Positions 1,497 to 48,266 are shown, numbered from the stretch's first letter. The stretch: 64,000 nucleotides of DNA from Clostridiales bacterium (GCA_022508485.1 JAFLVD010000002.1:18226-82225), one strand, 5' to 3'. Notes: generated from the letters alone by a model not told the origin. Numbers and translations: made by a program.

Positions 1497-3023
1497 TTAT
1501 ATAACCACACCGGGTATTCCCAATATTTTTATTTTTTCCTCATGTAATAACCTAATTCTTTTAAGGCTATTCCTGACAATATTGATTATAGACTTATAGT
1601 AATTGGATTCTTCAACTGTTCTGTGAACTTTAAACATATTTAGAATAGCTTCCAATATAAACATCAAACATATATCTGCACCAAAAATAACTCCGTTTGT
1701 TTCGCCCCATGCACCACTATTGGCATACCACATATATCCATTTGCATGAGAGAGCATTTGACTCTCCATGTAATTCAAAAGCATATTTCTATCCCATGAA
1801 ACTTCAGCATTAGGATCGACAAACTTTTTTATAAAATCTCTCACAAGGCTTGTAAAATTATTTACCTTCCCCTTCTCATCTATTGTATAACCACATGTCG
1901 ATATAAATGTTTGTTCAAATGCTGTTTGTTCTATACCATTCGGATAAAGCGCTTTATATAATCCGTAAGCATTATCTATTGAGTATTTTTCCCCTATGTT
2001 GCGACTTAATTGAATTCGCTCATGCTCTTCTAACAATTTAAAACGCTCTTCATGTGGGAAATAAGTGATATAACATTTGTAAAAACATGAAAACATATCT
2101 AACACTATTTTCCATTTTGACTTAACTTGTTCGCATAATCCAAGGAGTTTATCAGAACAAACTTCACTCATAAGAAGATTTATAGACATTAGAGTATCTG
2201 ACACATAGTTCTTATTGAAATATTTCTCGAAAACTTTGCTTATATCAATTAAAATTTTGCATTCTTGTCTTACTATATCTTCATATGCGCGAGCAATTTC
2301 TGATGAATATATAGTTGCACTAAAACTATTAAAAGTCAATTCAGCCACAGGTAGTGAATTATACTCTTCTATCATAAGAAGTAACATATTGGGTATTGTT
2401 CCCCATATGCCTTCATTCATATAAAAATCATTTACAGAAGGATGTATTGCTTGGCTATAAATACCATATAATTGTGCATAGTCCTCTCCCAAGTTTTCTC
2501 CAATTAATTTCCTATAATTTGCACTAGGGTCACAAAGGAAAGGCTTATTCGTTTTCAATATTGCGGCTATTTGTTTTTCACTATATGTTTCTGATAATTC
2601 TTCTTGGAAAAACTTTACTGCATCATCTTTGTCTTTTTCTAATTTTTCTGGAATCAATATTTTATCGGCAATATCGTCAAATTCTTTGTAATAATTATAT
2701 TCAATTATAAAGACCTGCTTATGTAATAATTTAACTTGTATATCACTTATTTTTCCTTTTTCATACATGCGTTTTAAGGCCAATCCCTCAAGAAAGCAAC
2801 GCGCAGTAAGCAACATACCAGGACTGCCTATATGCGACAAAAGGATATCTTTGATAAAGCATTGTGCCTGAGATGTTAAATAGAAATCTATCACATCGAT
2901 AAACGACTCAGAACCAAATTGCGCTTCATCCTCTGATCGTTTCATAAGGGCATGATTATAAGTAAACAATCTGCCCCAAAGCGAATTAAGTTGATTTAAA
3001 AATTCTTTTTCTTGAAAGTCCAT
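1497..3023 (-). CDS. Hypothetical 508-aa protein, third gene of the SIR2-HerA operon. I recognise no motif in it.
   Basis: The ORF-track start at 3047 is TTG. The first ATG is at 3023, 8 nt after the HerA stop (TAG 3032-3034). Same strand and same AT-rich composition as SIR2 and HerA. Confidence 0.7.
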   Translation of the reverse strand: MDFQEKEFLNQLNSLWGRLFTYNHALMKRSEDEAQFGSESFIDVIDFYLTSQAQCFIKDILLSHIGSPGMLLTARCFLEGLALKRMYEKGKISDIQVKLLHKQVFIIEYNYYKEFDDIADKILIPEKLEKDKDDAVKFFQEELSETYSEKQIAAILKTNKPFLCDPSANYRKLIGENLGEDYAQLYGIYSQAIHPSVNDFYMNEGIWGTIPNMLLLMIEEYNSLPVAELTFNSFSATIYSSEIARAYEDIVRQECKILIDISKVFEKYFNKNYVSDTLMSINLLMSEVCSDKLLGLCEQVKSKWKIVLDMFSCFYKCYITYFPHEERFKLLEEHERIQLSRNIGEKYSIDNAYGLYKALYPNGIEQTAFEQTFISTCGYTIDEKGKVNNFTSLVRDFIKKFVDPNAEVSWDRNMLLNYMESQMLSHANGYMWYANSGAWGETNGVIFGADICLMFILEAILNMFKVHRTVEESNYYKSIINIVRNSLKRIRLLHEEKIKILGIPGVVI

Positions 3024-3031
3024 TTGAGTAG

Positions 3032-4804
3032 CTATTTCAATCCCCAAATATCGATTAAATTCACATTATCACTATTCGGTGCAACTGTTTTATCTAAACA
3101 ATCAATTTTTGCCAGTAAAGGAAAATTAGCAGCAATACCAGAAAACAAACAACCTCCAGCAGGCAAAATTGGAATCATGTTATTAGAAACTGAATCAGAG
3201 AAAGCAACCGATTTATAAATACGCTTTAAATCTTCAGTATTTACTAGGCGGTGAACAAAAAAGTTATGCAACTGTGATATTATTGTTTCTGAAATATCAG
3301 ACGGTCTTTGGCTAGCAATTGTCAAAAATACACCAAATTTTCTTCCCTCTTTAATAATTTCTTCAAAAGTTTCTAATCGTGTGCTCTTCCACTCCTCACT
3401 CTCGCGCGCAGAACCATAAGATAAAATATTATGTGCCTCCTCAATTATTAAATGGAGAGACGATTGCAATCGATCATTTCCACGATGTTTTTTGTGTTTT
3501 TCGTATTTGTCCTTACAAATTATATAAGTCGCTAACTTCTTCATTTCTGCATTTAAATTAAACAAAGATATTACAACAACATGTTCATTCGGACAATTAT
3601 CACTCCTAAATTCAAATATTTTTCCCAGCTCACATATTATTTTATCCATACGATTAAATAATTGAATAATATATTGAGCTGAAATCTTCCCTTTTATTAA
3701 CTCTTTACAATACGTATAGTAAACAATTAAAGAAAAAATTTGTAAATCATTCAGATGCCTTAACGAAACAACGCTATTTTCCATGTTATCAAACAATTCG
3801 ATATACGTCGTAATATAATCCAACTCCCCACGAGTATTGCTTACAAGTTTTTTATATTCAATACTTATATTGTCATCAAAGGATATAATCTCATCTTCAA
3901 ATCCTAGACTTGTAAAAATATGAATTATGAATGCCCTAATTTCCCCATAATTTTTTGAGCTTTCCAAAACTAAATCGCTTAATTTTTGAGTCGTAAAATA
4001 ATCATTGGACTGTTTACATTCTTTATAATTTTTAATACATTCGTTGATAAACGGTTTTTGTGTTTTTTCAGAAGCTTGTAGTACTACCGACCAAAATTCA
4101 ATATCTGTTAAATATCTCTCATCTAATGGATATTTTTCATTTGTGGCAGAGTTTAATTCATAATAATGTCCATTAGGAAATGTTTTTCTATATTCTCCGT
4201 TTAAGTCAAAGAAAACAAACGACGAATTATTTTTAAATTGTTGATTATTCGAATATACTTCAAATAGTTCAGTATATATCTTTGCCAAAGTATTTGACTT
4301 ACCACTTCCGGTATTCCCAAATATTCCGATATGACTGCATATCAATTCTTGTAAATCCAATTTAAACGGATAATTATCATATTCAATTAAAGTACCTAAA
4401 TTTAATGTAAACTTCGAATGATGATCCAATATTTTTTTTTGTAATACCTCATCAATAATGTATACAAAATTACCAATTAACGGAAGTTCAATAACACCGA
4501 ATACAAATTGTTCGTTTTCTAAATGTCCCAAAATCGACACATCCAACGTTCTTGCTATGCCACGCCCTTTTTCCGCATAGCCACTCTCTAAAGGCGTAGC
4601 AGTTATAAACTCCCCATCTACTTTCCCTATTATATTCAAAAACCCTTTTCTAATAATGATAAAACTACCTATGCCTACATTTTTAATAGGCATGCCATCA
4701 TAATTTAAATATTCAACATTTTTCTCGCTATAAATACCAACTTTGATCTTATGTCCATATACTTCTCGCACTTCACCAATTTTCAATAATTCATTCAATA
4801 TCAT
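3032..4804 (-). CDS. herA: HerA-like (FtsK/HerA clade) P-loop ATPase, partner of SIR2.
   Basis: Walker A IGIFGNTGSGKSNTL; Walker B LHLIIEEAHN; GRKFGVFLTIASQRPSDISETIISQLHNFFVHRL. ATG 4804 follows an AAGGAG SD and overlaps the SIR2 3' end by 14 nt. Confidence 0.85.
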   Translation of the reverse strand: MILNELLKIGEVREVYGHKIKVGIYSEKNVEYLNYDGMPIKNVGIGSFIIIRKGFLNIIGKVDGEFITATPLESGYAEKGRGIARTLDVSILGHLENEQFVFGVIELPLIGNFVYIIDEVLQKKILDHHSKFTLNLGTLIEYDNYPFKLDLQELICSHIGIFGNTGSGKSNTLAKIYTELFEVYSNNQQFKNNSSFVFFDLNGEYRKTFPNGHYYELNSATNEKYPLDERYLTDIEFWSVVLQASEKTQKPFINECIKNYKECKQSNDYFTTQKLSDLVLESSKNYGEIRAFIIHIFTSLGFEDEIISFDDNISIEYKKLVSNTRGELDYITTYIELFDNMENSVVSLRHLNDLQIFSLIVYYTYCKELIKGKISAQYIIQLFNRMDKIICELGKIFEFRSDNCPNEHVVVISLFNLNAEMKKLATYIICKDKYEKHKKHRGNDRLQSSLHLIIEEAHNILSYGSARESEEWKSTRLETFEEIIKEGRKFGVFLTIASQRPSDISETIISQLHNFFVHRLVNTEDLKRIYKSVAFSDSVSNNMIPILPAGGCLFSGIAANFPLLAKIDCLDKTVAPNSDNVNLIDIWGLK

Positions 4805-5789
4805 TATCAATCTCCTTAAAAAACTGCGATACTTTTTCAATATTGCATTCGCTATTATTACGCAAAACAACTACATTGTGATATCTATTAAATTTCTCTT
4901 TATATGAATCTTCATCCCATTTTCTAAAGGCAAATATAACTACAGTTAAAGTAGGATTAAGTAAAGCTCTTTCTACTATTGTTCTTATATGTTCATCGTT
5001 AAACGAAAAACCATATACGAGTAATAAAGAATTCCTTTGCTCAAGTTCATTCCCAAATATTCTTAATTGATCATAATAGTTCGCATTTAAAACTGTTGTG
5101 TTAAATTTTTCTTTATTGGGATTAATAATCAAAAACTCTTTTTCATAAACTTGCATAAACTCATCATCATTTTCCAAACATTCTTTAACTCTCTCAATCT
5201 TTTTTAAACAATTTTCATAAGTTATGCCTACGTCCGTTTGCGTCCAATTCAAAGATCCATGTAATTTTAATAAATTTGCGGTGACTATTTCTGTTGATTT
5301 ATGCGCTAAAGCGCTTGTCTTTTTTATAACTCTTCCAAAATTAGTCGTAGAATACAATGGATTAAGGCGTCCAGAAAACCCATCTGAATATTCTATTCTG
5401 TTACACTCCAATGATTGTTCTATAAGCACATCATAATTAGTGGTAAAAATGTTAAACATTTTATGCAAAACCGAACTATGCCGTTTGTCTAATATATTTT
5501 TAATTGAATTTAAAAAATAATCTCGATATTTTTTATTAGCGTCTAACTTTTCTTGATAAAGAATCGGTAAAATGCTATTATTAAAAAATTCTTTTTCCAA
5601 TATAATCTTTTGTCTTATATCACCATTATCAATAGCTCTTGTTAATCGTTCTTCAAAATCATCTAAAACTTTTAAAAACGGCATACTAAATCCAGCACCC
5701 AACAATAAACTTATATTGTTAGATGAAAGACATTTTATCAAATATGATTTCACAACTTGCCGTTGCTCTTCTATATTATAAATTCTCAT
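4791..5789 (-). CDS. SIR2-family (SIR2_2-type) NADase-like protein.
   Basis: LLLGAGFSMP (GAGxS), IFTTNYDVLIE (TTNYD) and LLKLHGSLNW motifs. ATG 5789 follows an AAGGAG SD. The upstream part of the track ORF overlaps the XRE gene. Confidence 0.85.
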   Translation of the reverse strand: MRIYNIEEQRQVVKSYLIKCLSSNNISLLLGAGFSMPFLKVLDDFEERLTRAIDNGDIRQKIILEKEFFNNSILPILYQEKLDANKKYRDYFLNSIKNILDKRHSSVLHKMFNIFTTNYDVLIEQSLECNRIEYSDGFSGRLNPLYSTTNFGRVIKKTSALAHKSTEIVTANLLKLHGSLNWTQTDVGITYENCLKKIERVKECLENDDEFMQVYEKEFLIINPNKEKFNTTVLNANYYDQLRIFGNELEQRNSLLLVYGFSFNDEHIRTIVERALLNPTLTVVIFAFRKWDEDSYKEKFNRYHNVVVLRNNSECNIEKVSQFFKEIDNDIE

Positions 5790-5817
5790 CAAAAATCTCC
5801 TTAAAAACAAATAAGTG

Positions 5818-6060
5818 TTAATCAATCTCCAAGTCGGGATTCTCAAAAATTGGATCATCAAAGAATTGAGCAGCTGTCATACCAAGTCCACGGACAATCT
5901 GCATAACCGTTTTAAGATTTACACTCTTGTTCCTTTCGCCCATTAATGTTTTCATTGTGTTATGCGGCATAGCTATATCTCGCTCAAGTCGATACTGCGA
6001 CATACCCTTTTCACCCAATATGTTGCTTATTCTTAACGCTACTGCTGTACTTAATTTCAT
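5818..6060 (-). CDS. XRE-family helix-turn-helix transcriptional regulator (80 aa).
   Basis: LGEKGMSQYRLERDIAMPHNTMKTLMGERNKSVNLKTVMQIVRGLGMT is a typical Cro/C1 HTH. ATG 6060 has a GAGG SD. It lies 28 nt upstream of SIR2 on the same strand. Confidence 0.85.
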   Translation of the reverse strand: MKLSTAVALRISNILGEKGMSQYRLERDIAMPHNTMKTLMGERNKSVNLKTVMQIVRGLGMTAAQFFDDPIFENPDLEID

Positions 6061-6191: not shown

Positions 6192-6204
6192 AGAGAGAGT
6201 AGTA

Positions 6205-6801: not shown

Positions 6802-6842
6802 AATCGTGATTTGTAAATCGTGATTTGCTAAATTACGATTTG
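6802..6842 (+). repeat. Three tandem iteron-like direct repeats (period 14-15 nt).
   Basis: AATCGTGATTTG at 6802-6813, AATCGTGATTTG at 6816-6827 and AATTACGATTTG at 6831-6842, all in non-coding DNA. Confidence 0.7.
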
Positions 6843-6866
6843 CAAAAATATGTTCAACTGCTGAGT

Positions 6867-6897
6867 GACTAATCTCGATTCAGATTCGAGATTAGTC
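6867..6897. repeat. Perfect 12-bp inverted repeat (hairpin) with a 7-nt loop.
   Basis: GACTAATCTCGA-ttcagat-TCGAGATTAGTC. An extremely AT-rich stretch follows (6915-6970). Confidence 0.75.
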
Positions 6898-7369
6898 GCA
6901 GTGAGTTAGAATTTACTCGCCCATATTTAATTATAATGATATATGTATTTTAAATATAAATATATATCGTTTTTTACGCGTAAAAGGACTGGAAGTCCGT
7001 CATTAAAACACAAACTCCCCAATCAGTAAGTAATCGGGGAGATTGTGGGGCGTGGGGATTTGAGGGTCTGTCAAAAAGCGCAAGATATAGTATCTAATAT
7101 ATCATCTATATACAATATTTTGTATTTTTCGCTTTTACCCTCTTCCTCTGACTCCGTCACTTCGAAAGGTTGAAGAGTTTCGCCTGCTGCTAACACTATA
7201 TCTGCCGCGAATCAGAATTTTCTACTAAAACATATAGTATTTAGTTTTTGGGGAATAAATTTGGCAGTAAATTTGGGAGAGACTCCACAATTTTCTCTCA
7301 ACTCACCCTGAAACCAAAATTATATGCAACCGTTTTCATTAACAAAAGCTTCCATAGTCAGTAATATTG

Positions 7370-7915
7370 CTATATGTTATCTCCGTTTGCTACCATAATC
7401 ATTCCGACATTCACCTCTACTGATTTACTATCGTTTTGGTTAAACCAATCTTCTATGCAATCTTTATACCGGTCGGTTAAGCAAATTATACGCTGATTTG
7501 CCGAACCGAGAATGCGCCTTTTACTCTCCGCTTTGTCGGCAATATATGCGCCGTCCAGCACGACGTCGCAGCCGCGCAAAATATCTTTGACTTCGTCGTA
7601 AAGCCTGCCTGTAAAAGATATTACGCCCAGTCCGAGATTATGGATTGCTTCGGTGAGATGAGGTAAGTTTTGCTGTAGAGTAGGCTCTCCACCCGAATAT
7701 GTCACACCATCTATCCCGAACTCGTCTTTTGCTTCGGCGATGATTTTAACAAGCTCATCAAGAGTTAAAAGATTTTTCGGCACAAGCGGTTGATAGTCTG
7801 GATTACAACATCCTTTGCAATGAATATTGCAGCCCTGAAACCAAATGCACAACCTCTTGTACGGGCCTTCTACTTCGGTACACCGATTGATGCTTGCAAT
7901 ATTAAACTTAATCAT
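7370..7915 (-). CDS. NrdG / activating-enzyme-like radical-SAM protein (181 aa), last gene of the eight-gene operon.
   Basis: EVEGPYKRLCIWFQGCNIHCKGCCNP (CxxxCxxC cluster) and GVTYSGGEPTLQ (GGEP SAM motif). ATG 7915 overlaps the stop of the upstream ATPase gene by 8 nt. The track start at 7927 is TTG. Confidence 0.8.
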   Translation of the reverse strand: MIKFNIASINRCTEVEGPYKRLCIWFQGCNIHCKGCCNPDYQPLVPKNLLTLDELVKIIAEAKDEFGIDGVTYSGGEPTLQQNLPHLTEAIHNLGLGVISFTGRLYDEVKDILRGCDVVLDGAYIADKAESKRRILGSANQRIICLTDRYKDCIEDWFNQNDSKSVEVNVGMIMVANGDNI

Positions 7916-9740
7916 TGTCAAATTCAAAATGCAGCTTATCTTTCACTACACTTACAACTATTTTTGCACCTCTGAACGATAACAAATCTTGCTTATTTTC
8001 AAACATAAACATAGCGAGCTCGTCCAAAAGCTTATCATTGATTGCATTGAGTATATCGCGACCGCCCTTACTGCTATCTGTTCCTCCTAAAATATAATTG
8101 ATGAATTTTAACTCGTCGGCGAATTCCAAATCTATACGGTATTTTTCGGCGATTGCGCGTTGTACGGGACGAAGCTTGGAGCGCGCAATCTTTACGCTGA
8201 ACTCTTTATCTTTGATAAAGTTGAATGGAACGATATTGCTGTATCCGATACGCCCTAAAATTTCGGGACGCTTGATTTCGTTGTCAAAATAGTTCTTTAC
8301 AATCTTGATAAACTCTTCGGCTATCTCTTCGTTAGATCCGCTCGACGACACTTCCGAAGCGCCGAGATTGGATGTGAATATTATGACGCTTTCGCTGAAA
8401 TAAACCGTTTCGCCTTTGCTATCGGTCAAACGCCCGTCTTCGAGGATTTGCAGAAAAATGTCCAATATGCGCGGATTGGGTTTTGCCGCCTTTTCAATCT
8501 CGTCAAACAGTATAATACTGAACGGTTTTTCCTTAACGGCATTTGTCAGTTGTCCGCCCTCTTCATAGCCTACATATCCCGGAGGCGCGCCGATAAGCTT
8601 TTGGTCGCTGTTCTCCTGCGCATACTCGGACATATCAAAGCGAATACAAGCCTGCTCGTCTCCGAACAGGAATTTTGCAAGGGCTTTGCTGAGCTCGGTT
8701 TTACCCACGCCAGTAGGTCCGACAAAGAACAGCACACCTTTGGGCGCGGAACGACTGGACGATTTGTGAATTCCTGTCAATCCCATATATGCCTTAACTA
8801 CGACTTTTTCTATCTTCTCGATAGCTTCGTCTTGCCCGACCACGCGCTCGGAAAGAATCTTTTTAATGTTCTTTACTGCTTTATAGTCAAGCTTTTCCCA
8901 AGGATTGTCTTTCTCTCCGTACTTAAACAGAAGATATAATTGTTCAAACGGCATTTTACCTTCTTTGCGAGAAAGCCTGGCAAGCTGAATAATCTCACGA
9001 TTTGTAAAATCGTCGAGCATATCGATATACTCGTTCTTTTTATCGCAGGTCATAAGCGTTTCGCCCGGCTTTAGCTTTACTTCAAAACCGCTCTCGATCT
9101 TTTCCATCATTTTTTCGCGTTCTTCTCTATCCGGTTTGGAAAGCGTCAGGCAAGACACTTCGGCATTGCTCTGATAGAAAGAAATCGGAAACATAGCAAG
9201 TTTGCTTGTTACAAGCACAATTGTACTCTCGTTTACTTCCGAGGAAAGATAATCGACTTTTTTATCTTTTATGGCTTTGCCGAGAAGAGTCAATAGCTCG
9301 CGCTCGTCCGGCGGCAACACGCCGCCCGTCGAAAACAAATAGTCCGCCCAGTTCAACACAAACGCCGTTTTGCGATTGGGCTTTTTTAAGTTTTTAAATA
9401 TAATATTGAAAATCTCGGCAGTATCCTTAAAAAGTCCGCTGCCCGTTTTTTCTTCTTTTTTGGTATCTTCGTCGTCGTCAAACGAATATGCGTCGCCCTC
9501 TATCTCCACCTCGTCTATGACGGAAAGTCGAGATATATCACCGTCCACGCCGTCGATGCGATCCCAATACAGCACATCGTCAAAATCCATGGACTTCAGC
9601 ATATCCATAAGATATTGCTTTAAATCGACGATTTGCTTCTTTTCGTTGAGATAAACATCGCCAACATTACCCTCGACTATTACGCATCTTTTGATGCCTA
9701 TTTCGCGTCTTAATCTGTTAAATGTAGTGATAAGTGCCAT
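7908..9740 (-). CDS. ClpA/ClpB D2-like AAA+ ATPase with a degenerate N-terminal AAA-like half (610 aa).
   Basis: VVGQDEAIEKI; Walker A FFVGPTGVGKTELSKALA; GAPPGYVGYEEGG; Walker B SIILFDEIEKA; sensor-1 VIIFTSNLG. The N-terminal half has only VIVEGNVGDVY and FVLNWADY in place of Walker A and B. AAGGAG SD before ATG 9740. Confidence 0.8.
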   Translation of the reverse strand: MALITTFNRLRREIGIKRCVIVEGNVGDVYLNEKKQIVDLKQYLMDMLKSMDFDDVLYWDRIDGVDGDISRLSVIDEVEIEGDAYSFDDDEDTKKEEKTGSGLFKDTAEIFNIIFKNLKKPNRKTAFVLNWADYLFSTGGVLPPDERELLTLLGKAIKDKKVDYLSSEVNESTIVLVTSKLAMFPISFYQSNAEVSCLTLSKPDREEREKMMEKIESGFEVKLKPGETLMTCDKKNEYIDMLDDFTNREIIQLARLSRKEGKMPFEQLYLLFKYGEKDNPWEKLDYKAVKNIKKILSERVVGQDEAIEKIEKVVVKAYMGLTGIHKSSSRSAPKGVLFFVGPTGVGKTELSKALAKFLFGDEQACIRFDMSEYAQENSDQKLIGAPPGYVGYEEGGQLTNAVKEKPFSIILFDEIEKAAKPNPRILDIFLQILEDGRLTDSKGETVYFSESVIIFTSNLGASEVSSSGSNEEIAEEFIKIVKNYFDNEIKRPEILGRIGYSNIVPFNFIKDKEFSVKIARSKLRPVQRAIAEKYRIDLEFADELKFINYILGGTDSSKGGRDILNAINDKLLDELAMFMFENKQDLLSFRGAKIVVSVVKDKLHFEFDND

Positions 9741-9751
9741 TATCAGTCTCC

Positions 9752-10864
9752 TTATTTCTTATTTTTGTTGGTGTTTGTTGCTTGATATTTCATCGTAGCA
9801 ATTTTATCGGGATTGCTCCAAATTTCTGTCTGTTTGGTAACGCGAATGCCGTACACTTCTTCCAAATCGTGCATAAACGGCTCAATATCCTTTTGGCAAG
9901 CCTGACCTTCATATCCGTGAAAATCGTAAATAAATCTGCCATCGAGGAAAATTCGAAACTCTGCTTTCTCTCCGCTCGCCTTTAAAGCGACTAAAATCAC
10001 TTCGTTTGTATCGCGTTTGATTTTTATGTTCTTCTTATCTACAATAAATCCGCGCTGCTTAATCGCATCCATGATAATTTTAAGAGATTTTTGCCGAACC
10101 TTTTCGCCGACAATTTCGGCCGTAGCGCTCCGGCGCATTGCCGCAAGCTTTTCGCGAGCCGTGCCTTGAGCCCCCTCTGTCACTTTTCCAAGCGTTTCCG
10201 GCGCCACTCGAGACGCTTCCAATTCGGCGCGAATTTTGGCGCGTTCCTCTTCGTAACGGGTCTCATAAGTTTGATTTACTGTTTGCTCCATAAGCTGCTT
10301 GCCGGCCTTAATGAGAGCATCACCGATAAGCGTATTATCGCGAATGTATGCAAGAAATGCAAACTGCCGCAAAACCTCGTCGCTTATCCCACCCAACACG
10401 GCTCGTGTGCGCGAATCGACGGTTACCACTCCGCTGTTCTGCTCGCGCAATTTGCGTTGATAATCCCCTATACTATCTTTAAGCAGCGCTTCAAGCAAGC
10501 TTTCGAATTCCATCAACCGTTGCGACGCGAGAGTATCGACTTTTTGCTGTAATTGCTCCGCTGCCCTGATAGTGTCATTACGGTGCGCGTAGCGTGCTTC
10601 CATGTCGTCCATTCGCACCGAGCCCTTTTTAGCGTCGGTTTCCGCTTTTTTGCTCACATCGTTAATTTGATTGTCAAGCAAACTACGTTCCTGTCTAATT
10701 ACATCGGCAAGCTGTTGAACTTGCTCTGTTGCAATACGAGACGAAGATGCCTCTATCCTTGCAATCATGTCGTCCAATTCTTGCAGTCTTACCCTTGCAA
10801 CTTCGCAAACACTATTGCATTGAATAGCTATTTGCTGATAATCTACTTGAACCTGCCGACTCAT
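9752..10864 (-). CDS. Coiled-coil protein (370 aa) with a small C-terminal alpha/beta domain. Function unknown.
   Basis: ATG 10864 forms an ATGA overlap with the stop of the upstream gene. It is rich in long heptad-like E/Q/R/L segments (RLQELDDMIARIEASS..., EERAKIRAELEAS...). The track start at 10900 is less likely. Confidence 0.65.
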   Translation of the reverse strand: MSRQVQVDYQQIAIQCNSVCEVARVRLQELDDMIARIEASSSRIATEQVQQLADVIRQERSLLDNQINDVSKKAETDAKKGSVRMDDMEARYAHRNDTIRAAEQLQQKVDTLASQRLMEFESLLEALLKDSIGDYQRKLREQNSGVVTVDSRTRAVLGGISDEVLRQFAFLAYIRDNTLIGDALIKAGKQLMEQTVNQTYETRYEEERAKIRAELEASRVAPETLGKVTEGAQGTAREKLAAMRRSATAEIVGEKVRQKSLKIIMDAIKQRGFIVDKKNIKIKRDTNEVILVALKASGEKAEFRIFLDGRFIYDFHGYEGQACQKDIEPFMHDLEEVYGIRVTKQTEIWSNPDKIATMKYQATNTNKNKK

Positions 10865-13059
10865 TTCAATCCTCCTACCATAAATACTAAATCGCGCCAT
10901 TTTTCTATCGTGGCCTTATCGAAAGGTATCTGTGCGGCTCCCGGATGTTGGAATCCGTTTCTGCACTTACGAAGGATGTGCAAGTCGTCGGCCTGCGGTT
11001 TTGTGATAAGCTTTTTGCTTAGTGCGTCGTTTATGGTGTCGTTGACAGGCGTCGACTTGTCTAACTGCAATTTTTTGCACAAATCGTATTGCAATCTTAT
11101 AAGCAAATCGCAAACTGCGTCCTTATATTTGCCCCTGGAAATAAAATCGTTTATGTACTTTTCGGTTATATTTTCGGGATGGAACGCCGCCGTCCGCTCG
11201 ATAGACAAAAGCTCGTGTATAGGCTTGAATATTGCAAGGTAACGATCGTACTTTTCGTATTCATTACCCGCAAACTGCCTGTATTTTTGTATCGTTTTCG
11301 AAGTGTTTAAGAGCGTTCCGTAGGCGTTGAAAAACGCGTCGTTGTTGTAGTCGTCCTTTAACGTATATTCGGCGCTGTTTGTGACACCGAGCATATCGCA
11401 CAGCTTCCACAGATTAACCCGAACTGTCTTATACTTACTTGCAAGCTCGGTGTCGGAATTGATCGACGTGTTTTCCAGCACGGCATTCATAAACGTTTCT
11501 ATCACATTGGCAACCGAAAGAATTTCCATCTCCATATCGGGCAATGCCGAATTAAGCGCCTCGTATGCGATCTCGCGCGTTTCGGTTTTGCAAATATTAT
11601 CCGAAAATCTGCGCACGTATTCGATATTCGGGATTCTCAGAGCCGTTTTAAGCGGCATCAAAACCGTGTTTTTGTAAATGACGTTTTCTACCTTAACCTC
11701 GCTTACGCTTCTGTTGTACAGCTCAGTTGCAGCCTTTGCAAAATATTCAGTCCAAGGCTGATGATTTTTGAACGCCGAATTAATCTTTAACAGCAGCTCT
11801 GTTTGCTCGTCCGCCGTTTTAACCGACTTAAGCTTTTTGTCTATAAATTTTCCGAAGTATTCGGCGCCTAAACAGTCTGCGACATAGGTGACTATACGCC
11901 CTACCTCGTCGTCAAACGGCTTTTCGCAATATTGATCGTACAGGCTTTCGACAATTCCTCTAAAAATTTCATCATCAGCCTTGCTTTCTATCAAAAGCGG
12001 CAAAGTAAATGTGTCGCCAAAGTTTTTGCACGACATAGCCATGTTGACCGCACTAAACGCTCTGCATCCCGACTTATCCAAAAGCGCACAATACGCGTGT
12101 TCATCGATTTCATCCAAAAGTCGGCAAGAGAGATCTAAATCAGCACAAATAGCGTCGTTACGATCCACCGCCGTCCCTCTCTGTAAAAACACAACACATG
12201 GGCGCTTTGCTTGCTTAGACAAATCTTCGGGTAGATATAACGCCGTCAAATTGGACACGGTCGCAATACCCACCGTCGGAATGCGGCCTACGGACTCTGG
12301 AAATTTAAATTTGTTTTTCATTACCATTCCGCTTTCCATGATAGCGGACGAATAGTACTTATCGAAAAACGCCCTTTCCGCAGTGGTTGCAAAAGTAAAC
12401 TCTATGTGCGAAGGATATATATTTAGGGTGATATTCTCTTCCGAACGAACGTGCATTTTTTGCGGAGGATCTGTCTCGAATGAAATCATGCGTTCCTCCG
12501 CCTTTAACCCCACCTTAGTAGGATTTACGTTGAGATAATCCCCTAAGCCGCTTATGTCTATATCCACATGGTCCAAAAACTCCTCGCCCAAAAAACAGTT
12601 TGCAATCGGAGAGTATGTCATGTCGGAGTACACATCAAAGCGATTAGTTACAGGGCTGTAAAAAATATCCTTAGCCTTTTCCTTTTCCACGCCTGTGGGG
12701 ATTGCCCCCTCGCTGAACAGCTTTTTGCCTTTTGGTGTAATGGCGACCTCGTTCAGCTTGATTTCCGCAAAATACTTTGGATTGGAAAAATGCGACGCCG
12801 CATACTTGGATTTTACTATTTCGGTATTGATAAGCCCCTCTAACTCCCTGCCGAAAAGGCTGTGGAGCTCGGTGGGTATGCCGAATTTTTTCAACGCCTC
12901 GGAAAAACGCATATCGGACTTTTGCTTGTCTATAAGCTCGAGCAAGATGTAGGCTATACCGGAGGCCTTGCGCACCTCGTTATACTTGATGCGCGTCTTG
13001 TAAATCAACAGCGGAAAAGGACATTGCGTTTTTATCTGCTTTATTAACTTCTCTTCCAT
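10861..13059 (-). CDS. 732-aa protein with a C-terminal HEPN-like domain (putative RNase effector).
   Basis: The C-terminus reads ...DDLHILRKCRNGFQHPGAAQIPF.... RNGFQH is an Rx4H motif encoded at 10945-10962, checked codon by codon. An AGGAGG SD sits inside the 3' end of the helicase gene, with a 1-nt gap to the helicase stop. Confidence 0.55.
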   Translation of the reverse strand: MEEKLIKQIKTQCPFPLLIYKTRIKYNEVRKASGIAYILLELIDKQKSDMRFSEALKKFGIPTELHSLFGRELEGLINTEIVKSKYAASHFSNPKYFAEIKLNEVAITPKGKKLFSEGAIPTGVEKEKAKDIFYSPVTNRFDVYSDMTYSPIANCFLGEEFLDHVDIDISGLGDYLNVNPTKVGLKAEERMISFETDPPQKMHVRSEENITLNIYPSHIEFTFATTAERAFFDKYYSSAIMESGMVMKNKFKFPESVGRIPTVGIATVSNLTALYLPEDLSKQAKRPCVVFLQRGTAVDRNDAICADLDLSCRLLDEIDEHAYCALLDKSGCRAFSAVNMAMSCKNFGDTFTLPLLIESKADDEIFRGIVESLYDQYCEKPFDDEVGRIVTYVADCLGAEYFGKFIDKKLKSVKTADEQTELLLKINSAFKNHQPWTEYFAKAATELYNRSVSEVKVENVIYKNTVLMPLKTALRIPNIEYVRRFSDNICKTETREIAYEALNSALPDMEMEILSVANVIETFMNAVLENTSINSDTELASKYKTVRVNLWKLCDMLGVTNSAEYTLKDDYNNDAFFNAYGTLLNTSKTIQKYRQFAGNEYEKYDRYLAIFKPIHELLSIERTAAFHPENITEKYINDFISRGKYKDAVCDLLIRLQYDLCKKLQLDKSTPVNDTINDALSKKLITKPQADDLHILRKCRNGFQHPGAAQIPFDKATIEKWRDLVFMVGGLK

Positions 13060-13060
13060 A

Positions 13061-16000
13061 CTACTTTCCTCCTATGGTGTCGCGCATGGGAATGATATCT
13101 CGTGCCGGAATTATTTTTCCCTTAAAATCTATCGTTGAAATAATTTCTTTGTAGACGTGGAAATTAAGTTTGCCAGCACCGCACCCGTCCATATCCGGTA
13201 AATCGATTATGCCGTAATCGGACAAGAATTTTCTGGCTCCAACTACAATAAGCAGCTTGCGCGCCCGAGACAGCGCCACGTTGATGCGCTCGAACTTTTT
13301 AAGAAATTCCAGGTCGAATTTCTTTCCGGGTGCAGGGTTTCTGACCATGGAGAGAATTATGATATCTCGCTCGTCGCCTTGAAAGTCGTCAACTGTGCTT
13401 ATTACCAGTTTTTCGTCTTGCTTGCCCGAAAAGTTGCCGAACTGCTTATTTTTGCGTTTTTTCTTAATAAGAGAAGCCTGGTCGCCGTATGTACAAATTA
13501 CGCCCACGCTCGGCCGCTCATCTATGCGCCGATCCTTGTTTACTTTGATTTTGCCTGTCCTAATAAGCTCTCCGCTTGCCGCATCAATTTGCCGCAAAAG
13601 CTCGATTGCAACCTGTGCTTCCTGCTCGTTGGACTTGGATGTGCTGCCATCGTCGGCGCTGGATTCCCTTTCGTCGCAATCGACAAAGTAAATGTGATGC
13701 TCGGGATCGATAACGGTATTGCCGTTGATGCGGACTGTAAGGTTGTGCTGCTTTTCGTTGTCTTGTTGCGGAAATCCCACTTGCAAGCCTTTTTGACTAC
13801 CGCCGTAAAAATGGTTGAAAACCTCCATTATGTGGCTGTGGCAACGGTATTGCTTGTTGAGCATGACCTTAAAGTCATCGGGTACTTCCTCGTAAAGTTT
13901 CTTAAAGAAGCACTCTTCGTATAATTCGGTGTACTTTTTGTTGATACTTTGATTGATAATGTCGTCGTTCAACCCCTCAAAGTCTTCTTCTCTCATGTGG
14001 CGCAAATCGTACATGGGCGGCAGCTGTCTGTGGTCGCCCACAAGGATGACCGTTTCCCCGTACAAAATGGGAATGAGCAAATCGAGGAAAGAGGACTTGG
14101 ACACCTCGTCGATAATGACCACATCAATCCCTTGCGTGCGTATGTTTACATCCTCTATGCCGTACCGACCGAGCTCTTCTAACTGCTGTCTCGTAAATCT
14201 GTCGCGACTGGTGCAGGTAATACCGAACACATTAGCCTTATCGTACAGAGCGCGAGTGTACTCTTGTCTGTCCTCGTCCAAGATTTCTTGCTGCGCAAGA
14301 TATTTGCATATTCCACGGTACATCGGAATTTTTACTGCGTTTTCTGCTTGCGTGGATTTATAGTCGCGTTCCAACTTTTTCCACTCGTCTGCAATAATGG
14401 AGAACGCCTTTCCCATATCGTTCGGATCGTACTCACACACAATATCAAAGTCTTGCATAAACCGCGAAACGCTCTGCTTTAATGCGGAATTAAGCTCAGA
14501 ATATTCCACAAGCGTTTGATCCTCGCCAAGATCCTCAAGCTTTTGTTTCAGTTTGTTGATGTTTATCTGTTTTTCTCTTATGTCGCTATCCAGCCGGTCT
14601 TGCTGCGCGAGGATAGATTTCATGTCCTCTTCTATTCTGTCCTTAATCTCGCTTACAGTGCGCTGCACTTCTATTTTGAATGCCGTTAACTCGTCGGGCA
14701 GCTTTTTAAGCTTATCTTTATCTCCGGCGATTTGCGGAAGAACGGAAAACACGACGGTATCCGAAATGTCGAACTTGCTTGTCTCCTGCGCCCGACGCAA
14801 TTCGCCTGCAACAGACATCAATTCTTTTTGATATTTTTTATATTGCTCAAAATAATCGTCACCTTCCGTTGGCGGCTCGTCCGTTTCGGGGTCGCGCAGT
14901 TCGGAAAGAATTTCCTTTAGCTCTCGTTGTCTGTTTTTAAGCCTAATCGTTTTATCATTGTCATCGGACAACAGTGCGGCAAGTTCTTGCTTTACAGCGT
15001 TCACATCCAATTTGATTAGCTCACCCACCTTTTCCTTGGACAGCTTGTTAAAGCAAGAATATTTTTTGAGTAAAAAATCGATTGCGTCCGCAAAATCTGT
15101 TAAGTACTGCTCTTTGACGTCTTCTCCGGCAAAGCGGTATGTTTCGATATATTTAATCGTACGCCTAAACTGCTCTATCTCGTCACACACAACGGATAAT
15201 TCCCCACGCAAGTTATCTAGCATTTCATTAAGCTTATTTATATCTGCGGAAACGGAGCGCATCTCCTTTTGCACCTGTGCGACCTGTCCTTCCAATCTCA
15301 AAACCCTATCGTAGTCAAGGCGCAGTTTTTTCATCATTTCGCCAAAGGTTGCCTTTGTTTCCTCAAAATGTTCAAACCTATCCACCTGTTTTTCCAGATT
15401 GCGGCTGATATTAAGATAGAAATTATCCACCAATCTTTCAGGGCTGTAATTTGTTTCTTTGCCGTTTTGTGACGGAATAAGCCTAAGCGGTCGTATTTCC
15501 GGTATTTTAGGTAGCCTTTCAAACACATTGTCGATTGCCTTATGCGTTTCGGAGGAAACCAACACCTTTTTGCCGCGCTTACACAGCTGTGCGGCTATCT
15601 CGGCTATAACCTGCGTCTTTCCGGTGCCGGGCGGACCCTGCAAGAGAAAGATACTCTCGCTCGCGAGCGCCTTTTGTACGGCGAGTTTTTGCCTGTCGTT
15701 AAGACTTTCCAAGCACCAATCTATATCGTCCGCCGTCCTCTTTGTACTGCCGAGCGATTTAGCATCAAATAGATATGCCGGCAAATACGGATTCTTTACA
15801 TAACCGCCCATAAATGCGACGAGCGCACGCTCCTGCCTTTCTATCTTAGTCCGCTCAGCGCGACTGTCGTATGTAAGATAATGCGCATCTACTGTAGCTA
15901 TTTCCTTTCTAAGTCCGGAAAGAGTTTTGTTGCTGTCATCCGGACGGAAGTAAACACTGTAGCGGCGTATAGTTTCATTTTCGATTTTTACGGCTATTTC

Positions 16001-17692
16001 TTGATCGCGCTTTTGGGCAAGATCCTTTTGTGCCGTCGCCTTTTCGGCGCTAATCGCACCTTCGTATTGGGTTTGTAATTGATGCTCTTTTTCGCGTTTG
16101 ACTTTTTCCAACTCGGCCTGCTTGGCAATATAAAGGCTCTTGCGCTTGTTTGCAATCAACTTATTATTTCGTGCGATATAAAAATCCCGAAGATTCAGTT
16201 CTTTCGCCGCATAAGCACAGTCTTCTTCGTATTTATATTTTAATGCGGCAAGGCTTTCTTGTTGCTTTGCAATTTTCACTTTATCGCCATCTTTTTTATA
16301 TTTGACGAGTTGTTTCTCAACTTCCTGCCGCTCTCTGTCGTATTCGGATTTAAGCGGCTTGGTAAGCTCGGTGACGGCACTTTCGAATTCTTTTTGAACG
16401 TCTCTATCATGGTTTTCGCGCACATCGTCGTCCAGCGCGTCATTAAGCCCACGTTCGTAATCGCTTAACTGACGAGTATATTTTGCCGTTATTGTGGGCT
16501 CTTGCGCAGCCATAAACTTTGTAAGCTCCGCAAAAATAACGGCGACATACTTGTCGTCAATCGCTTTTTCCGCCGCCTTGCGGCTTCTTTCATACTTGCT
16601 TACTATCGCCTCGCAGTCCGGTTCGATATCGGTAAATGTAAACAAATATCGCTCGCCCAAAAGATATTGGTCGAACTTATACCCCTTGGGCAAATTGCCG
16701 TTGTCATCAAATTTCGGCTCGGTGGGCGATAGACCCATCGCATTCTTTGTGTAGCGTTGCAAATCCGCCTCGTACTTAGGCTTGCCTTTGCCGAACTTTC
16801 CGATAGTTTCGCTAAGCACCTGTTTGCGGTTTTTTTCTATGTCGACGCGAATGAGCGGAAAGCTCTCCGCGCCGCTCACGTCCTTTGACAAAATAACCTG
16901 CTCACTGCGAGCAAACGCCGAAATGCCGTCGAGAAGCAGCGGAGCATAATCGTCCTCCCTCCGCCTATACGCCTCTCTGGAAATCATATAAGCATCACAC
17001 ACCTCCGCAGTGTAGATGCGCTCGCACTTTTCCGATTGCTTAGTGAGATAATATTTTCTGAATTCTATGTACTTTTGCCAGGTATCGAAGACGCTTAAAA
17101 CCTTCTTGTACTCAGTTTTAGGCACCGGTGATAAATCCTGAAAAAGCTCGTTCACAAAGTCGTTTGTAAGCACAGATTCATGCAACTCTCTTGTGCCATA
17201 ATCCGGAACAGATGCACCCGTACGCAGTGTTGTCCGCGAAAAAGCACAAGCCGCATTGCATTCTACACTCTTTTCCCCGAACTTTTTCATCGACTTGTCG
17301 ATGATGTCAATACCCTTAACCGAAACGGAAATAACACTACCGAGCATGACATCGCCGATTAGTATAAGCTCGTAGTTTTCGGGTAGCACGCCGCGAGAAT
17401 ATGGGGCCCCGGTAGGACGAATAACCATATTATTAATGTAGTTATTTTCTCTACCGCTTCTGTTGACAACGGTGCTGATTTTTCTGTCAAAACTCGGCAG
17501 TGATATAAAGTATTCCGAAACGCTGTACGGACAAAACATATCGATAAAATCGACAAGCGTTTCCGGAAAATTGCCGTCGAACCTTTGACGCAACACCCCA
17601 TACTGCTCAGTGAGCGACGTGTTGTACAAGTCGTTGGGATTGCGACTACCAGCTTCCAAATTGTCCACAAAATTCAAATATAGATACGCCAT
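13061..17692 (-). CDS. Giant (1543 aa) Upf1/DNA2-like SF1 helicase (AAA_11/AAA_12 type) with a ~685-aa N-terminal extension and a coiled-coil insertion.
   Basis: Motif I FLLQGPPGTGKT (15614-15637, residue ~686); motif II VVIIDEVSK (DE at about residue 1195, nt 14105-14110); VGDHRQLPPM; LNKQYRCHSHI; STVDDFQGDERDIIILSMVR; INVALSRARKLLIVVG. Confidence 0.85.
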   Translation of the reverse strand: MAYLYLNFVDNLEAGSRNPNDLYNTSLTEQYGVLRQRFDGNFPETLVDFIDMFCPYSVSEYFISLPSFDRKISTVVNRSGRENNYINNMVIRPTGAPYSRGVLPENYELILIGDVMLGSVISVSVKGIDIIDKSMKKFGEKSVECNAACAFSRTTLRTGASVPDYGTRELHESVLTNDFVNELFQDLSPVPKTEYKKVLSVFDTWQKYIEFRKYYLTKQSEKCERIYTAEVCDAYMISREAYRRREDDYAPLLLDGISAFARSEQVILSKDVSGAESFPLIRVDIEKNRKQVLSETIGKFGKGKPKYEADLQRYTKNAMGLSPTEPKFDDNGNLPKGYKFDQYLLGERYLFTFTDIEPDCEAIVSKYERSRKAAEKAIDDKYVAVIFAELTKFMAAQEPTITAKYTRQLSDYERGLNDALDDDVRENHDRDVQKEFESAVTELTKPLKSEYDRERQEVEKQLVKYKKDGDKVKIAKQQESLAALKYKYEEDCAYAAKELNLRDFYIARNNKLIANKRKSLYIAKQAELEKVKREKEHQLQTQYEGAISAEKATAQKDLAQKRDQEIAVKIENETIRRYSVYFRPDDSNKTLSGLRKEIATVDAHYLTYDSRAERTKIERQERALVAFMGGYVKNPYLPAYLFDAKSLGSTKRTADDIDWCLESLNDRQKLAVQKALASESIFLLQGPPGTGKTQVIAEIAAQLCKRGKKVLVSSETHKAIDNVFERLPKIPEIRPLRLIPSQNGKETNYSPERLVDNFYLNISRNLEKQVDRFEHFEETKATFGEMMKKLRLDYDRVLRLEGQVAQVQKEMRSVSADINKLNEMLDNLRGELSVVCDEIEQFRRTIKYIETYRFAGEDVKEQYLTDFADAIDFLLKKYSCFNKLSKEKVGELIKLDVNAVKQELAALLSDDNDKTIRLKNRQRELKEILSELRDPETDEPPTEGDDYFEQYKKYQKELMSVAGELRRAQETSKFDISDTVVFSVLPQIAGDKDKLKKLPDELTAFKIEVQRTVSEIKDRIEEDMKSILAQQDRLDSDIREKQININKLKQKLEDLGEDQTLVEYSELNSALKQSVSRFMQDFDIVCEYDPNDMGKAFSIIADEWKKLERDYKSTQAENAVKIPMYRGICKYLAQQEILDEDRQEYTRALYDKANVFGITCTSRDRFTRQQLEELGRYGIEDVNIRTQGIDVVIIDEVSKSSFLDLLIPILYGETVILVGDHRQLPPMYDLRHMREEDFEGLNDDIINQSINKKYTELYEECFFKKLYEEVPDDFKVMLNKQYRCHSHIMEVFNHFYGGSQKGLQVGFPQQDNEKQHNLTVRINGNTVIDPEHHIYFVDCDERESSADDGSTSKSNEQEAQVAIELLRQIDAASGELIRTGKIKVNKDRRIDERPSVGVICTYGDQASLIKKKRKNKQFGNFSGKQDEKLVISTVDDFQGDERDIIILSMVRNPAPGKKFDLEFLKKFERINVALSRARKLLIVVGARKFLSDYGIIDLPDMDGCGAGKLNFHVYKEIISTIDFKGKIIPARDIIPMRDTIGGK

Positions 17693-47236: not shown

Positions 47237-47239
47237 TCC

Positions 47240-48262: not shown

Positions 48263-48266
48263 GATT

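Follow-up and report, generated by a model that had tools for sequence, protein, structure and literature searches.

Organization of the locus

We analyzed a 64,000-nucleotide stretch of genomic DNA from a Clostridiales bacterium (GCA_022508485.1, JAFLVD010000002.1:18226-82225; hereafter the window), with attention to two minus-strand genes that encode a ClpB-like ATPase of 610 residues and a radical S-adenosylmethionine (radical-SAM) protein of 181 residues. An initial annotation of this DNA had presented the pair by itself as the finding. The pair is real, and that description proved too narrow: the two genes form the 3' end of an operon of eight co-directional genes, encoding in order a 138-residue protein, a CARF protein, a 296-residue protein, a helicase, a HEPN protein, a 370-residue protein, the ATPase and the radical-SAM protein, of which the last five make up a conserved core. 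This operon context provides the main clue to the function of the pair. The open reading frame (ORF) of the radical-SAM gene spans 7370-7927, and the ATG chosen by gene callers, at 7915, yields the 181-residue product; this ATG and the ATPase stop codon share eight nucleotides (7908-7915), read in GACAATGATTAAG. Coordinates of the operon and of adjoining defense genes are collected in Table 1.

Table 1. Operon features and adjoining defense genes, numbered from the first nucleotide of the window
Feature	Position	Strand	Description
Radical-SAM gene	7370..7915	minus	181 residues; NrdG-family radical-SAM protein, Fer4_12
ATPase gene	7908..9740	minus	610 residues, ATG start
ATPase, C-terminal half (residues 286-610)	7908..8885	minus	intact ClpB/ClpC-type D2 AAA+ module
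ATPase, N-terminal half (residues 1-285)	8886..9740	minus	family-specific domain; probably D1-like AAA fold lacking Walker A/B
370-residue protein gene (g382)	9752..10864 (mechanical ORF to 10900)	minus	third constant partner of the ATPase-radical-SAM pair
HEPN protein gene	10861..13059	minus	732 residues; predicted C-terminal HEPN RNase domain
Helicase gene	13061..17692	minus	1543 residues; superfamily 1, Upf1/MkoA-like; Pfam AAA_11, AAA_12, AAA_30
296-residue protein gene	17732..18622	minus	occupies the variable slot that precedes the helicase
CARF protein gene	18633..19256	minus	207 residues, stand-alone; cyclic-oligoadenylate-sensor-type domain
138-residue protein gene	19277..19693	minus	first gene of the operon; no family match
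Terminator-like hairpin	7015..7041	minus	11-bp stem followed by a T-run, ~330 nucleotides past the radical-SAM stop
SIR2 gene	4791..5861	minus	PADLOC, 213 bits
HerA gene	3032..4870	minus	PADLOC, 455 bits
516-residue protein gene	1497..3047		unassigned gene, minus strand; overlaps the HerA stop

An ATPase with an intact D2 module and a family-specific N-terminal half

The complete ClpA/B D2-type module that the initial annotation had read in the ATPase was confirmed, with its motifs GPTGVGKT (residue 341), PPGYVGY (386), LFDEIEKA (411) and FTSNLG (455). Walker A lies at nucleotides 8697-8720 and Walker B (DEIEKA) at 8487-8510, accompanied by a GYVG pore loop, a sensor-1 TSN and a sensor-2 GGR. 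Pfam AAA_2 (PF07724) matches residues 333-498 with 173 bits, the ClpB_D2-small model matches near its threshold, and a phmmer search of the PDB aligned residues 289-577 with the D2 domains of ClpC and ClpB at E-values of 1e-55 to 1e-58 (best, 3e-58). In an alignment of 21 diverse relatives (A7) the D2 Walker A and B motifs, sensor-1, the arginine, sensor-2 and the pore-loop glycines (G388, G391) are invariant and Y389 is nearly so, features by which the C-terminal half is classed as a genuine ClpB/ClpC-type AAA+ module. Other hallmarks of the Hsp100 proteins were sought in vain: Pfam detected no Clp_N domain, the alignment to ClpC is limited to residues 289-577, and the ClpP-docking (I/V)G(F/L) loop was not found, the segment opposite the YVGFN of ClpC being shorter and devoid of the tripeptide. 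Against the ClpB model TIGR03346 the ATPase scores 253 bits versus a cutoff of 1232, with ClpB and ClpA equivalog scores generally about one fifth of their cutoffs; and of the two functional nucleotide-binding domains that define a class 1 Hsp100, D2 alone is intact.

The N-terminal ~300 residues had been described initially as a dead AAA half that keeps the outline of the fold, with GNVGDVY in place of Walker A and NWAD in place of Walker B. Both motifs are present (at residues 24 and 130, the former at nucleotides 9651-9671), Walker A and B motifs are lacking and the outline is plausible; the word dead is misleading, since the substituted motifs are conserved. No sequence match to the first ~285 residues was obtained from Pfam (up to an E-value of 5) or from the PDB (phmmer). 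Comparison of profiles of this half and of the protein's own D2 (hhalign) gave an E-value of 0.48, or a marginal 0.006 with the sensor-1 strands aligned. An AlphaFold2 (AF2) model built from 29 sequences, with a mean predicted local distance difference test score (pLDDT) of 61, shows a core of alternating strands and helices followed by a helical bundle or lid, and residues 63-105 constitute an acidic, disordered insert. With the model at this level of confidence, Foldseek superposed it onto two-ring ClpC, ClpA and ClpB chains over 530-710 columns (template modeling score, TM, 0.40-0.48). A D1-like AAA fold is thus likely for the N-terminal half, as modeled.

This half is also widespread. Among 1.84 billion representative sequences phmmer matched it to 205 clusters, and most full-length matches are proteins of 600-690 residues in which the same half precedes a D2, at identities descending to 22-30%. 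In 21 aligned diverse relatives G24, D28, P203 and R208 do not vary and N25 hardly does; none of these relatives has a Walker A in the N-terminal half, and no intermediate possessing one was found among the representatives. Because these five residues are kept down to 22-30% identity the loop appears to be under selection, and we regard GN(V/I)xD, on the strength of this alignment, as an old, selected feature and not the product of recent decay. A decayed, pseudogene-like N-terminal half was considered and rejected on account of the invariant motifs.

A minimal radical-SAM protein of the activase lineage

The smaller protein matches Pfam Fer4_12 (E = 9.5e-24) and Radical_SAM (E = 3.4e-12). Its CX3CX2C cluster motif (residues 29-36, nucleotides 7808-7831) opens the sequence CNIHCKGCCNP at residue 29 and is followed by GGEP (75-78) and GSxNQ (137-141), and an N-terminal GP..R loop is retained, in the form EGPGxR in proteobacterial members. 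We collected 552 relatives; in two alignments (A1 and A8) C29, C33, C36, G75-G76-P78, D121-G122 and G137-S138-N140 are invariant. The DG and GSxNQ motifs are ones that we take to be typical of NrdG. The protein amounts to a minimal activase-type core, with no extra domain and, in particular, no RNA-binding or auxiliary-cluster domain.

Assignment to the anaerobic ribonucleotide reductase activase type, made initially from the sequence, is borne out at the level of lineage: the best matches are to NrdG and PflA models, all beneath their cutoffs. The top NCBIfam model is NrdG TIGR02491 (82.3 bits versus a cutoff of 126.1); a second NrdG model, NF008335, gives 44.7 bits (cutoff 199), PflA TIGR02493 gives 62.5 (cutoff 231.75), and the remaining activase models (TIGR02494, YjjW, CutD and others) score lower. 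Among solved structures phmmer detected only pyruvate formate-lyase-activating enzyme (PFL-AE), the closest, and, more weakly, MoaA. We therefore place the protein by its sequence in the NrdG/PflA activase lineage, as a member that fits no curated family. Matches to QueE, MoaA and viperin-type models are confined to the cluster region, and a viperin- or QueE-like identity was rejected for that reason; the earlier remark that 181 residues are too few for a viperin agrees with this, as the matches to prokaryotic viperin (pVip) models extend over 70-80 residues, at 23-27 bits, of profiles having 257-474 positions.

The only known partners of such activases are, as far as we are aware, glycyl-radical enzymes. 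None was seen in the window initially, and none emerged from systematic scans: no NRDD, PFL or Gly_radical domain was found by Pfam in any large ORF of the window, and a six-frame scan of ORFs of at least 150 residues for R[VIT]xG[FWY] returned three chance matches only, of which one falls in a lipase-like ORF and the others in ORFs not regarded as genes (one of these antisense to the gene of the 370-residue protein).

A fixed five-gene cassette

To place the pair in a broader setting, loci were gathered in two scans: one seeded with the radical-SAM protein, taking one genome per species, which yielded 78 loci, mostly from gut and rumen metagenome-assembled genomes (MAGs); and another, run on metagenomes with the helicase N-terminus as seed, which yielded 80 more. 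Most relatives are MAG or metagenome contigs, and the counts of gene order below are restricted to loci with sufficient flanking sequence, those from the radical-SAM scan requiring at least 2 kb upstream. The gut and rumen MAGs of the first scan belong to Clostridia, to Bacilli (among them Anaeroplasmataceae and Erysipelotrichaceae), to a few Bacteroidales and to others. Individual loci are denoted by L and a number.

The initial annotation's pairing of the two proteins holds throughout. An ATPase gene lies directly 5' of the radical-SAM gene in 63 of 63 loci from the first scan, each from another species; the pair recurs as well on plasmids and in another system architecture, as described below. 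The stop of one gene overlaps the start of the other in 61 of 62 distinct loci. The gene of the 370-residue protein is present in 59 of 60 radical-SAM-seeded loci, and all five core genes occur in 43 of 46 of these and in 55 of 55 helicase-seeded metagenome loci. Exceptions are truncated remnants (L021 and L080) and one lineage (L067 and L070, the latter on a shorter contig) in which the 370-residue protein, ATPase and radical-SAM genes stand alone, adjoining a tRNA synthetase gene. Another cassette remnant, L002, lies beside a transposase. The core is thus fixed as helicase, HEPN or PIN RNase protein, coiled-coil protein (the 370-residue protein of the window), ATPase and radical-SAM protein, and the last two, inherited together and translationally coupled, constitute a dedicated module within this mobile cassette of several genes.

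Identity to the window proteins ranges over 57-96% for the ATPase, 44-87% for the radical-SAM protein, 36-90% for the helicase, 28-77% for the 370-residue protein and 20-84% for the HEPN protein; by these figures the translationally coupled ATPase and radical-SAM protein rank as the slowest-evolving components. Additions accumulate at either end. Downstream of the radical-SAM gene, 17 of 64 distinct loci have a translationally coupled gene for an RNase III-like protein of 166 residues, starting 3 nucleotides before the radical-SAM stop, and 11 of 64 have a gene for a DEDD (RNase_T-like) exonuclease; the window copy has neither. Such additions were seen in L172-L179 (~12353-14147), L023, L040, L050, L165 and others. 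Upstream of the helicase, the slot held in the window by the 296-residue protein is occupied elsewhere by unrelated genes of ~309 or ~175 residues (the latter with an N-terminal helix-turn-helix, HTH, by eye), and no homology was detected among the three alternatives. The trio of CARF, 296-residue and 138-residue genes was found only in the window and in L121/L122, giving CARF in 3 of more than 100 loci, a distribution that marks it as a lineage-specific addition.

Other proteins of the operon

The 370-residue protein is predicted (AF2, pLDDT 73) to consist of a long helical bundle (residues 1-270), a small domain of a four-stranded sheet with a helix, and a conserved disordered tail; the invariant motifs YxGxxCxxD and WxNPD reside in the sheet/helix domain. 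None of its 607 relatives has a Pfam domain, and neither Pfam (queried with the protein itself and with 10 family members) nor a profile search of the PDB nor Foldseek runs on PDB and BFVD yielded a significant relative by sequence or fold. One local match, to the N-terminal domain of spermine synthase, had a probability of 0.98 and yet an E-value of 0.8, and is not significant; a suspected likeness to DUF2997 was not confirmed by hmmscan. In two relatives (P0241 and P0270) a helical unit of ~120 residues at the N-terminus is triplicated, extending the proteins to 613-630 residues with the same C-terminal domain, and the helical part of the family therefore appears to behave as a spacer of variable length.

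The C-terminal domain of the 732-residue protein is predicted to be a HEPN RNase: 16 diverse members all keep R700-N701-x3-H705 (nucleotides 10945-10962 in the window), and 15 of them match Pfam PF13643 (DUF4145, of the HEPN clan; best E-value 2.7e-5), some also matching HEPN_RiboL-PSP or HEPN_MAE_28990. The helicase, which includes an N-terminal region of ~660 residues and a long coiled-coil insert, scores 296 bits against the PADLOC MkoA model (PDLC03920) and 177 bits against the NCBIfam IGHMBP2-family model.

The 207-residue protein is assigned to the CARF family by a full-length match to PADLOC CARF2--CARF (PDLC01820; E = 4e-79, residues 1-205 of a profile of 205 positions), with matches to Csx1 models and to NCBIfam cas_TM1812 (E = 6e-10, below cutoff) besides. 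The 296-residue protein has no match in Pfam, PADLOC, NCBIfam or PDB, and by eye may resemble a sigma-70 factor (region 2 and a region 4 HTH). Homologues of the 138-residue protein are encoded upstream of CARF in L121/L122 and downstream of the radical-SAM gene in L022, L030 and L080. No homologue of solved structure was found for the helicase N-terminal region, the 296-residue protein or the CARF protein. The operon probably ends at the strong terminator-like hairpin of Table 1; the ~330 nucleotides preceding it are non-coding, with no Rfam family in 6600-7420 and no remnant of an RNase III or RNase T gene.

Dispersal among plasmids and modular reuse

A tblastn search with the N-terminal half of the ATPase retrieved 12 plasmids, and cassettes were found on plasmids of Moellerella wisconsensis, Acinetobacter sp. 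WCHA55, Polaromonas naphthalenivorans, Leisingera thetidis and Photobacterium toruni. Their genes follow the order AAA helicase, PIN protein, hypothetical protein of ~370 residues, AAA ATPase of ~615 residues and 4Fe-4S single cluster protein of ~195 residues. For the pair by itself, the plasmid hosts fall into four bacterial classes, namely Clostridia and three classes of Proteobacteria. Plasmid-borne radical-SAM proteins are 33-38% identical to that of Firmicutes and keep every motif. Profile comparisons (hhalign) between the Firmicute and plasmid sets related the C-terminal domains of the 370-residue proteins (99.7% probability), the helicases (E = 8e-80) and the N-terminal domains of the second gene product (E = 4.6e-6). 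Since homology to the Firmicute proteins holds for every plasmid component, the RNase domain of the second gene appears to have been swapped, HEPN in Firmicutes for PIN in Proteobacteria, with the remainder unchanged. The Acinetobacter helicase scores 320 bits against MkoA, and the N-terminus of its PIN protein weakly matches the N-terminus of MkoB (E = 1e-5). On the Acinetobacter plasmid pNDM1_010055 (L181, 11712-13694) a VakA-like kinase gene (PADLOC, E = 5e-19) and a gene for a 328-residue pVip-like radical-SAM protein directly follow the cassette, so that this NDM-1 plasmid carries two distinct radical-SAM-containing systems as neighbors.

The pair, or the triad that includes the coiled-coil protein, also occurs without helicase and RNase. 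On a plasmid of Aristaeella lactis (L183, NZ_CP069422.1, 1-16000) the radical-SAM and ATPase genes are in inverted order, with a 4-nucleotide overlap, in a different system that comprises a DUF4011 helicase, a Ser/Thr kinase, a 430-residue coiled-coil protein, an FHA protein, PP2C, DUF6273 and a second kinase, and no RNase; reading the sequences gave the impression that the 430-residue protein may resemble the 370-residue one. A Geminocystis plasmid carries the ATPase without the other genes. Two more distant NrdG-like Fer4_12 proteins (32-36% identity) were encountered without NrdD: in a Nautiliales MAG (L082, 578-6813), where the operon ends with a Cdc48-like double-AAA ATPase of 791 residues, and in an archaeal MAG (L084, 5894-10564), following SbcD- and SbcC/Rad50-like genes.

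Beyond these settings, neighbors of the cassette at other loci include type I restriction-modification genes, SymE, HipA, VakA, a pVip-like gene, recombinases, transposases, and a helicase protein with RE_NgoFVII/PLD domains adjoining a DNA methylase. The cassette is horizontally mobile, extends over several bacterial phyla and travels among defense and mobile-element genes. It was not found in 50,697 phage genomes or in complete E. coli genomes; IMG/VR, where it is rare, contributed seven loci.

Relationship to known systems

Each part of the cassette has recognizable kin, and each departs from them. The radical-SAM protein shares with NrdG (TIGR02491) and PflA (PDB 3C8F/3CB8) the minimal Fer4_12 partial-TIM-barrel core of ~155-245 residues and the motifs CX3CX2C, GGE(P), GP..R, DG and GSxNQ; unlike them it scores under all curated cutoffs, has an AAA+ unfoldase as its constant partner with no NrdD, PFL or RVxG[FWY] protein nearby, and is encoded on plasmids of strict aerobes. 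The ATPase resembles ClpB, ClpC and ClpA, and human CLPB/Skd3 with its single D2-type module, in an AAA_2 D2 that retains catalytic and pore-loop residues, in a D2-small-like lid, and in a predicted two-tier architecture that aligns on ClpC and ClpA chains (in the low-confidence model). In contrast to them it lacks the N-domain, M-domain and ClpP-docking loop, has its own, family-specific C-terminal beta-hairpin, and in place of Walker A/B its upper tier presents the GN(V/I)xD loop and the acidic disordered insert. Hsp100 unfoldases are known to us only as disaggregases or feeders of proteases.

Among defense systems the closest likeness is to Mokosh type I, composed of the helicase MkoA and the PLD nuclease MkoB: the cassette helicases score 296-320 bits against MkoA, and a nuclease gene follows the helicase gene in both. 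The cassette nuclease, however, is HEPN or PIN and not PLD, and the coiled-coil protein, ATPase and radical-SAM protein, obligatory in the cassette, have no Mokosh counterpart; a plain Mokosh system was rejected on these grounds, that is, the missing MkoB nuclease and the three additional conserved genes. Dodola (DolA with the ClpB-like DolB) and the PADLOC candidate PDC-M37 also employ a ClpB-D2-like ATPase (DolB 70 bits, PDC-M37B 113 bits), and we know of no radical-SAM enzyme in either; their matches to the cassette ATPase are restricted to D2 and no operon protein matched a DolA model in the PADLOC scan. Membership in Dodola was likewise considered and rejected.

Radical-SAM enzymes figure in other anti-phage systems, namely the prokaryotic viperins, Ophion, which combines a radical-SAM enzyme with PHP and PRTase proteins (bioRxiv 10.1101/2025.09.30.679545), and HXS (PMC13128918). 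These enzymes belong to other subfamilies with other partners, no AAA+ unfoldase among them, and either use nucleotides as substrates or process a peptide effector to maturity; viperins are in addition larger than the 181-residue protein. The stand-alone CARF and the possibly sigma-like protein (by eye) that precede the helicase in the window are reminiscent of CalpL-CalpT-CalpS, a pathway leading from type III CRISPR signaling to a sigma factor (PMC11229360), from which the window differs in having no SAVED-Lon protease, cas genes or CRISPR array and the cassette in lacking CARF at nearly all other loci.

No model of the cassette exists in PADLOC v2, where the 370-residue protein matches nothing, and no NCBIfam (release 20) family matches any of the five genes above cutoff. 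Source annotations read "AAA family ATPase", "4Fe-4S single cluster domain-containing protein" or "hypothetical protein". Searches of open-access papers and bioRxiv with combinations of CARF, radical-SAM, ClpB, HEPN, PIN and helicase located no description of the cassette, and none is given in the 2025 CRISPR-Cas classification, a survey of type III effectors or the Ophion preprint. Within the open-access literature, PADLOC and NCBIfam, then, the five-gene cassette is undescribed.

Genomic surroundings

Directly downstream of the operon lie genes for SIR2 and HerA (Table 1), which together with the operon constitute a defense island; the segment that holds them (1497-5861) has a G+C content of ~30%, versus ~45% next door. 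Between the two defense systems a plus-strand gene (6139-6636) encodes a protein of 165 residues of the YpsA/SLOG family (PF06908, E = 1e-16). The window contains no CRISPR array, and no cas gene was found among its scanned ORFs. Genes for SpoIVA, Der and FtsZ/FtsA show that it comes from the chromosome of a spore-former within the Clostridia.

Two features apart from the defense island were also recorded. A 27/54-nucleotide tandem repeat (36260-36390; 2.3-4.9 copies, 76-81% matches) occurs inside a DUF975 gene of 560 codons (36173-37855), with a second short repeat at 37049-37145. A minus-strand surface-polysaccharide cluster (43108-58187) encodes Wzy_C, GT2, epimerase, LicD-HAD and DegT proteins and a sugar transferase-ATP-grasp fusion; a 630-residue ORF within it (43108-45000) has no Pfam match.

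A probable conflict module with a possible radical chemistry

Genomic context strongly suggests a role of the cassette in defense or conflict, because it combines an MkoA-like helicase, the exchange of HEPN for PIN, fast-evolving sensor-side genes, CARF, defense neighbors, and recombinases and transposases. Most likely it is a Mokosh-related system directed against invaders, phage or plasmid, and the ATPase-radical-SAM pair is very probably a dedicated module of a conflict system.

How the pair might act is a more tentative matter. We propose that the helicase and RNase would form a Mokosh-like arm that senses and cleaves nucleic acid (RNA), and that the ATPase, radical-SAM and coiled-coil proteins would make up a separate effector or activation module. 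A hexameric ATPase, using its D2 motor and GYVG pore loops, would grip and unfold a polypeptide and so present backbone or side-chain C-H groups to the activase-like enzyme, which would remove a hydrogen atom by way of a 5'-deoxyadenosyl radical, in the way that NrdG and PflA attack an extended glycine-bearing loop in their protein substrates. Such an attack would alter the polypeptide covalently and irreversibly, leaving a radical on it, cleaving it, crosslinking it or epimerizing it. Exposure of a polypeptide to radical attack is suggested because relatives of the radical-SAM protein abstract a glycine hydrogen and because the ATPase is a threading motor without a protease-docking loop. The substrate may be a component of the system, either the 370-residue protein (alternatively an adaptor) or the RNase protein, or else a protein of host or foreign origin. 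In the window, the CARF and possibly sigma-like proteins added upstream suggest that cyclic oligoadenylate signaling may control the system. Taken as a whole, a conflict module acting by protein-directed radical chemistry seems to us about evenly balanced between right and wrong; the protein-directed radical mechanism of the pair, considered by itself, is possible and rather doubtful.

Several points weigh against this proposal. No operon protein contains an RVxG[FWY]-type glycyl-radical motif, and the YxGxxC of the 370-residue protein does not fit one. Several hosts of the cassette (Acinetobacter, Polaromonas) are obligate aerobes, which argues against a long-lived classical glycyl radical. 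Physical interaction of ATPase and radical-SAM protein is suggested by the overlap of their genes, an AAA-like fold for the first half of the ATPase by a low-confidence model (pLDDT 61), and the defense role by genomic context. The accessory genes, finally, are overwhelmingly directed at RNA.

This last point favors a different substrate, RNA delivered by the helicase (viral transcripts, tRNA or rRNA), which the radical-SAM protein would modify or cleave while the ATPase remodels a ribonucleoprotein. We think it unlikely, and nonetheless a serious rival, because every other recognizable activity acts on RNA: the Upf1/MkoA-like helicase, HEPN or PIN, the RNase III-like protein (17/64) and the DEDD exonuclease (11/64). 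It sits uneasily with a minimal 181-residue core that has no RNA-binding or auxiliary-cluster domain, with characterized relatives that act on proteins (save for the weaker match to MoaA), with the strict coupling of the enzyme to a protein unfoldase, and with the presence of the pair among kinase, FHA and phosphatase genes in Aristaeella, where there is no RNase.

Less likely than an RNA substrate, and in our estimate improbable, is a small-molecule product: like viperin or QueE, the enzyme would turn a nucleotide or metabolite into a signal or antiviral compound, with the ATPase as its regulator or downstream effector. Weak matches to PADLOC pVip models (E = 4e-7 to 2e-5) and to QueE_Clost (28 bits) point this way, as does the CARF sensor of the window operon, through which nucleotide signaling touches the system. 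Those matches, however, cover the generic ~75 cluster-binding residues and fall far below the NrdG and PflA scores; the protein has no viperin C-terminal substrate-binding extension, the core cassette includes no nucleotide kinase or cyclase, and CARF is confined to 3 of more than 100 loci.

Similarly improbable is that the cassette serves no immune purpose and is a mobile-element addiction, competition, or RNA or protein quality-control module that travels with defense islands. Its frequent residence on plasmids, beside recombinases and transposases, and the seven IMG/VR loci accord with such a role. Set against it are the MkoA-like helicase, Mokosh being a validated defense family; the standard signature of defense, comprising HEPN/PIN swapping, fast-evolving sensor-side genes, CARF and neighbors such as SIR2-HerA, type I restriction-modification, pVip and VakA; and the lack of the cassette in the 50,697 phage genomes. 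Scarcely credible is a housekeeping assignment, with the radical-SAM protein as the cell's NrdG and the ATPase as an ordinary Clp chaperone that happen to be neighbors: it draws on the top-ranking NrdG model in NCBIfam, the annotation of one relative as NrdG by the Joint Genome Institute (JGI) and the gut anaerobes that host cassettes of the window type, and was rejected on scores far below cutoff (NrdG 82 versus 126 bits, ClpB 253 versus 1232), the want of NrdD in the window, the invariable location of the gene within a mobile five-gene cassette, and the patchy, recombinase-flanked occurrence of that cassette on plasmids of obligate aerobes.

Returning to protein-directed radical chemistry within a conflict module, the proposal can be extended by analogy with ClpA/ClpX and ClpP: an Hsp100-type unfoldase would feed a radical-SAM enzyme in place of a protease, and a radical formed on the threaded chain would cleave, crosslink or switch on a viral, host or system protein. 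Such a device would work in aerobes and could serve as a plug-in for helicase/RNase systems, for kinase/FHA systems, and possibly for AAA+/radical-SAM pairs like that of L082. That it represents a new class of immune effector is a conjecture to which we give a small chance.

A co-inherited, translationally coupled pair of unfoldase and activase, distributed from gut Clostridia to plasmids of Acinetobacter, implies a chemistry for which neither family is known. Complete cassettes on sequenced plasmids of cultivable Proteobacteria make the question directly testable. The cassette also widens the Mokosh-like theme of helicase and nuclease through the exchange of HEPN and PIN, the addition of RNase III or DEDD enzymes and, in the window, a CARF input. 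Were the pair an immune effector of the kind proposed, protein-directed radical chemistry would join nucleases, NADases, pore-formers and nucleotide analogues in the immune repertoire, and the many "orphan NrdG" annotations in genomes devoid of a corresponding glycyl-radical enzyme would find an explanation.

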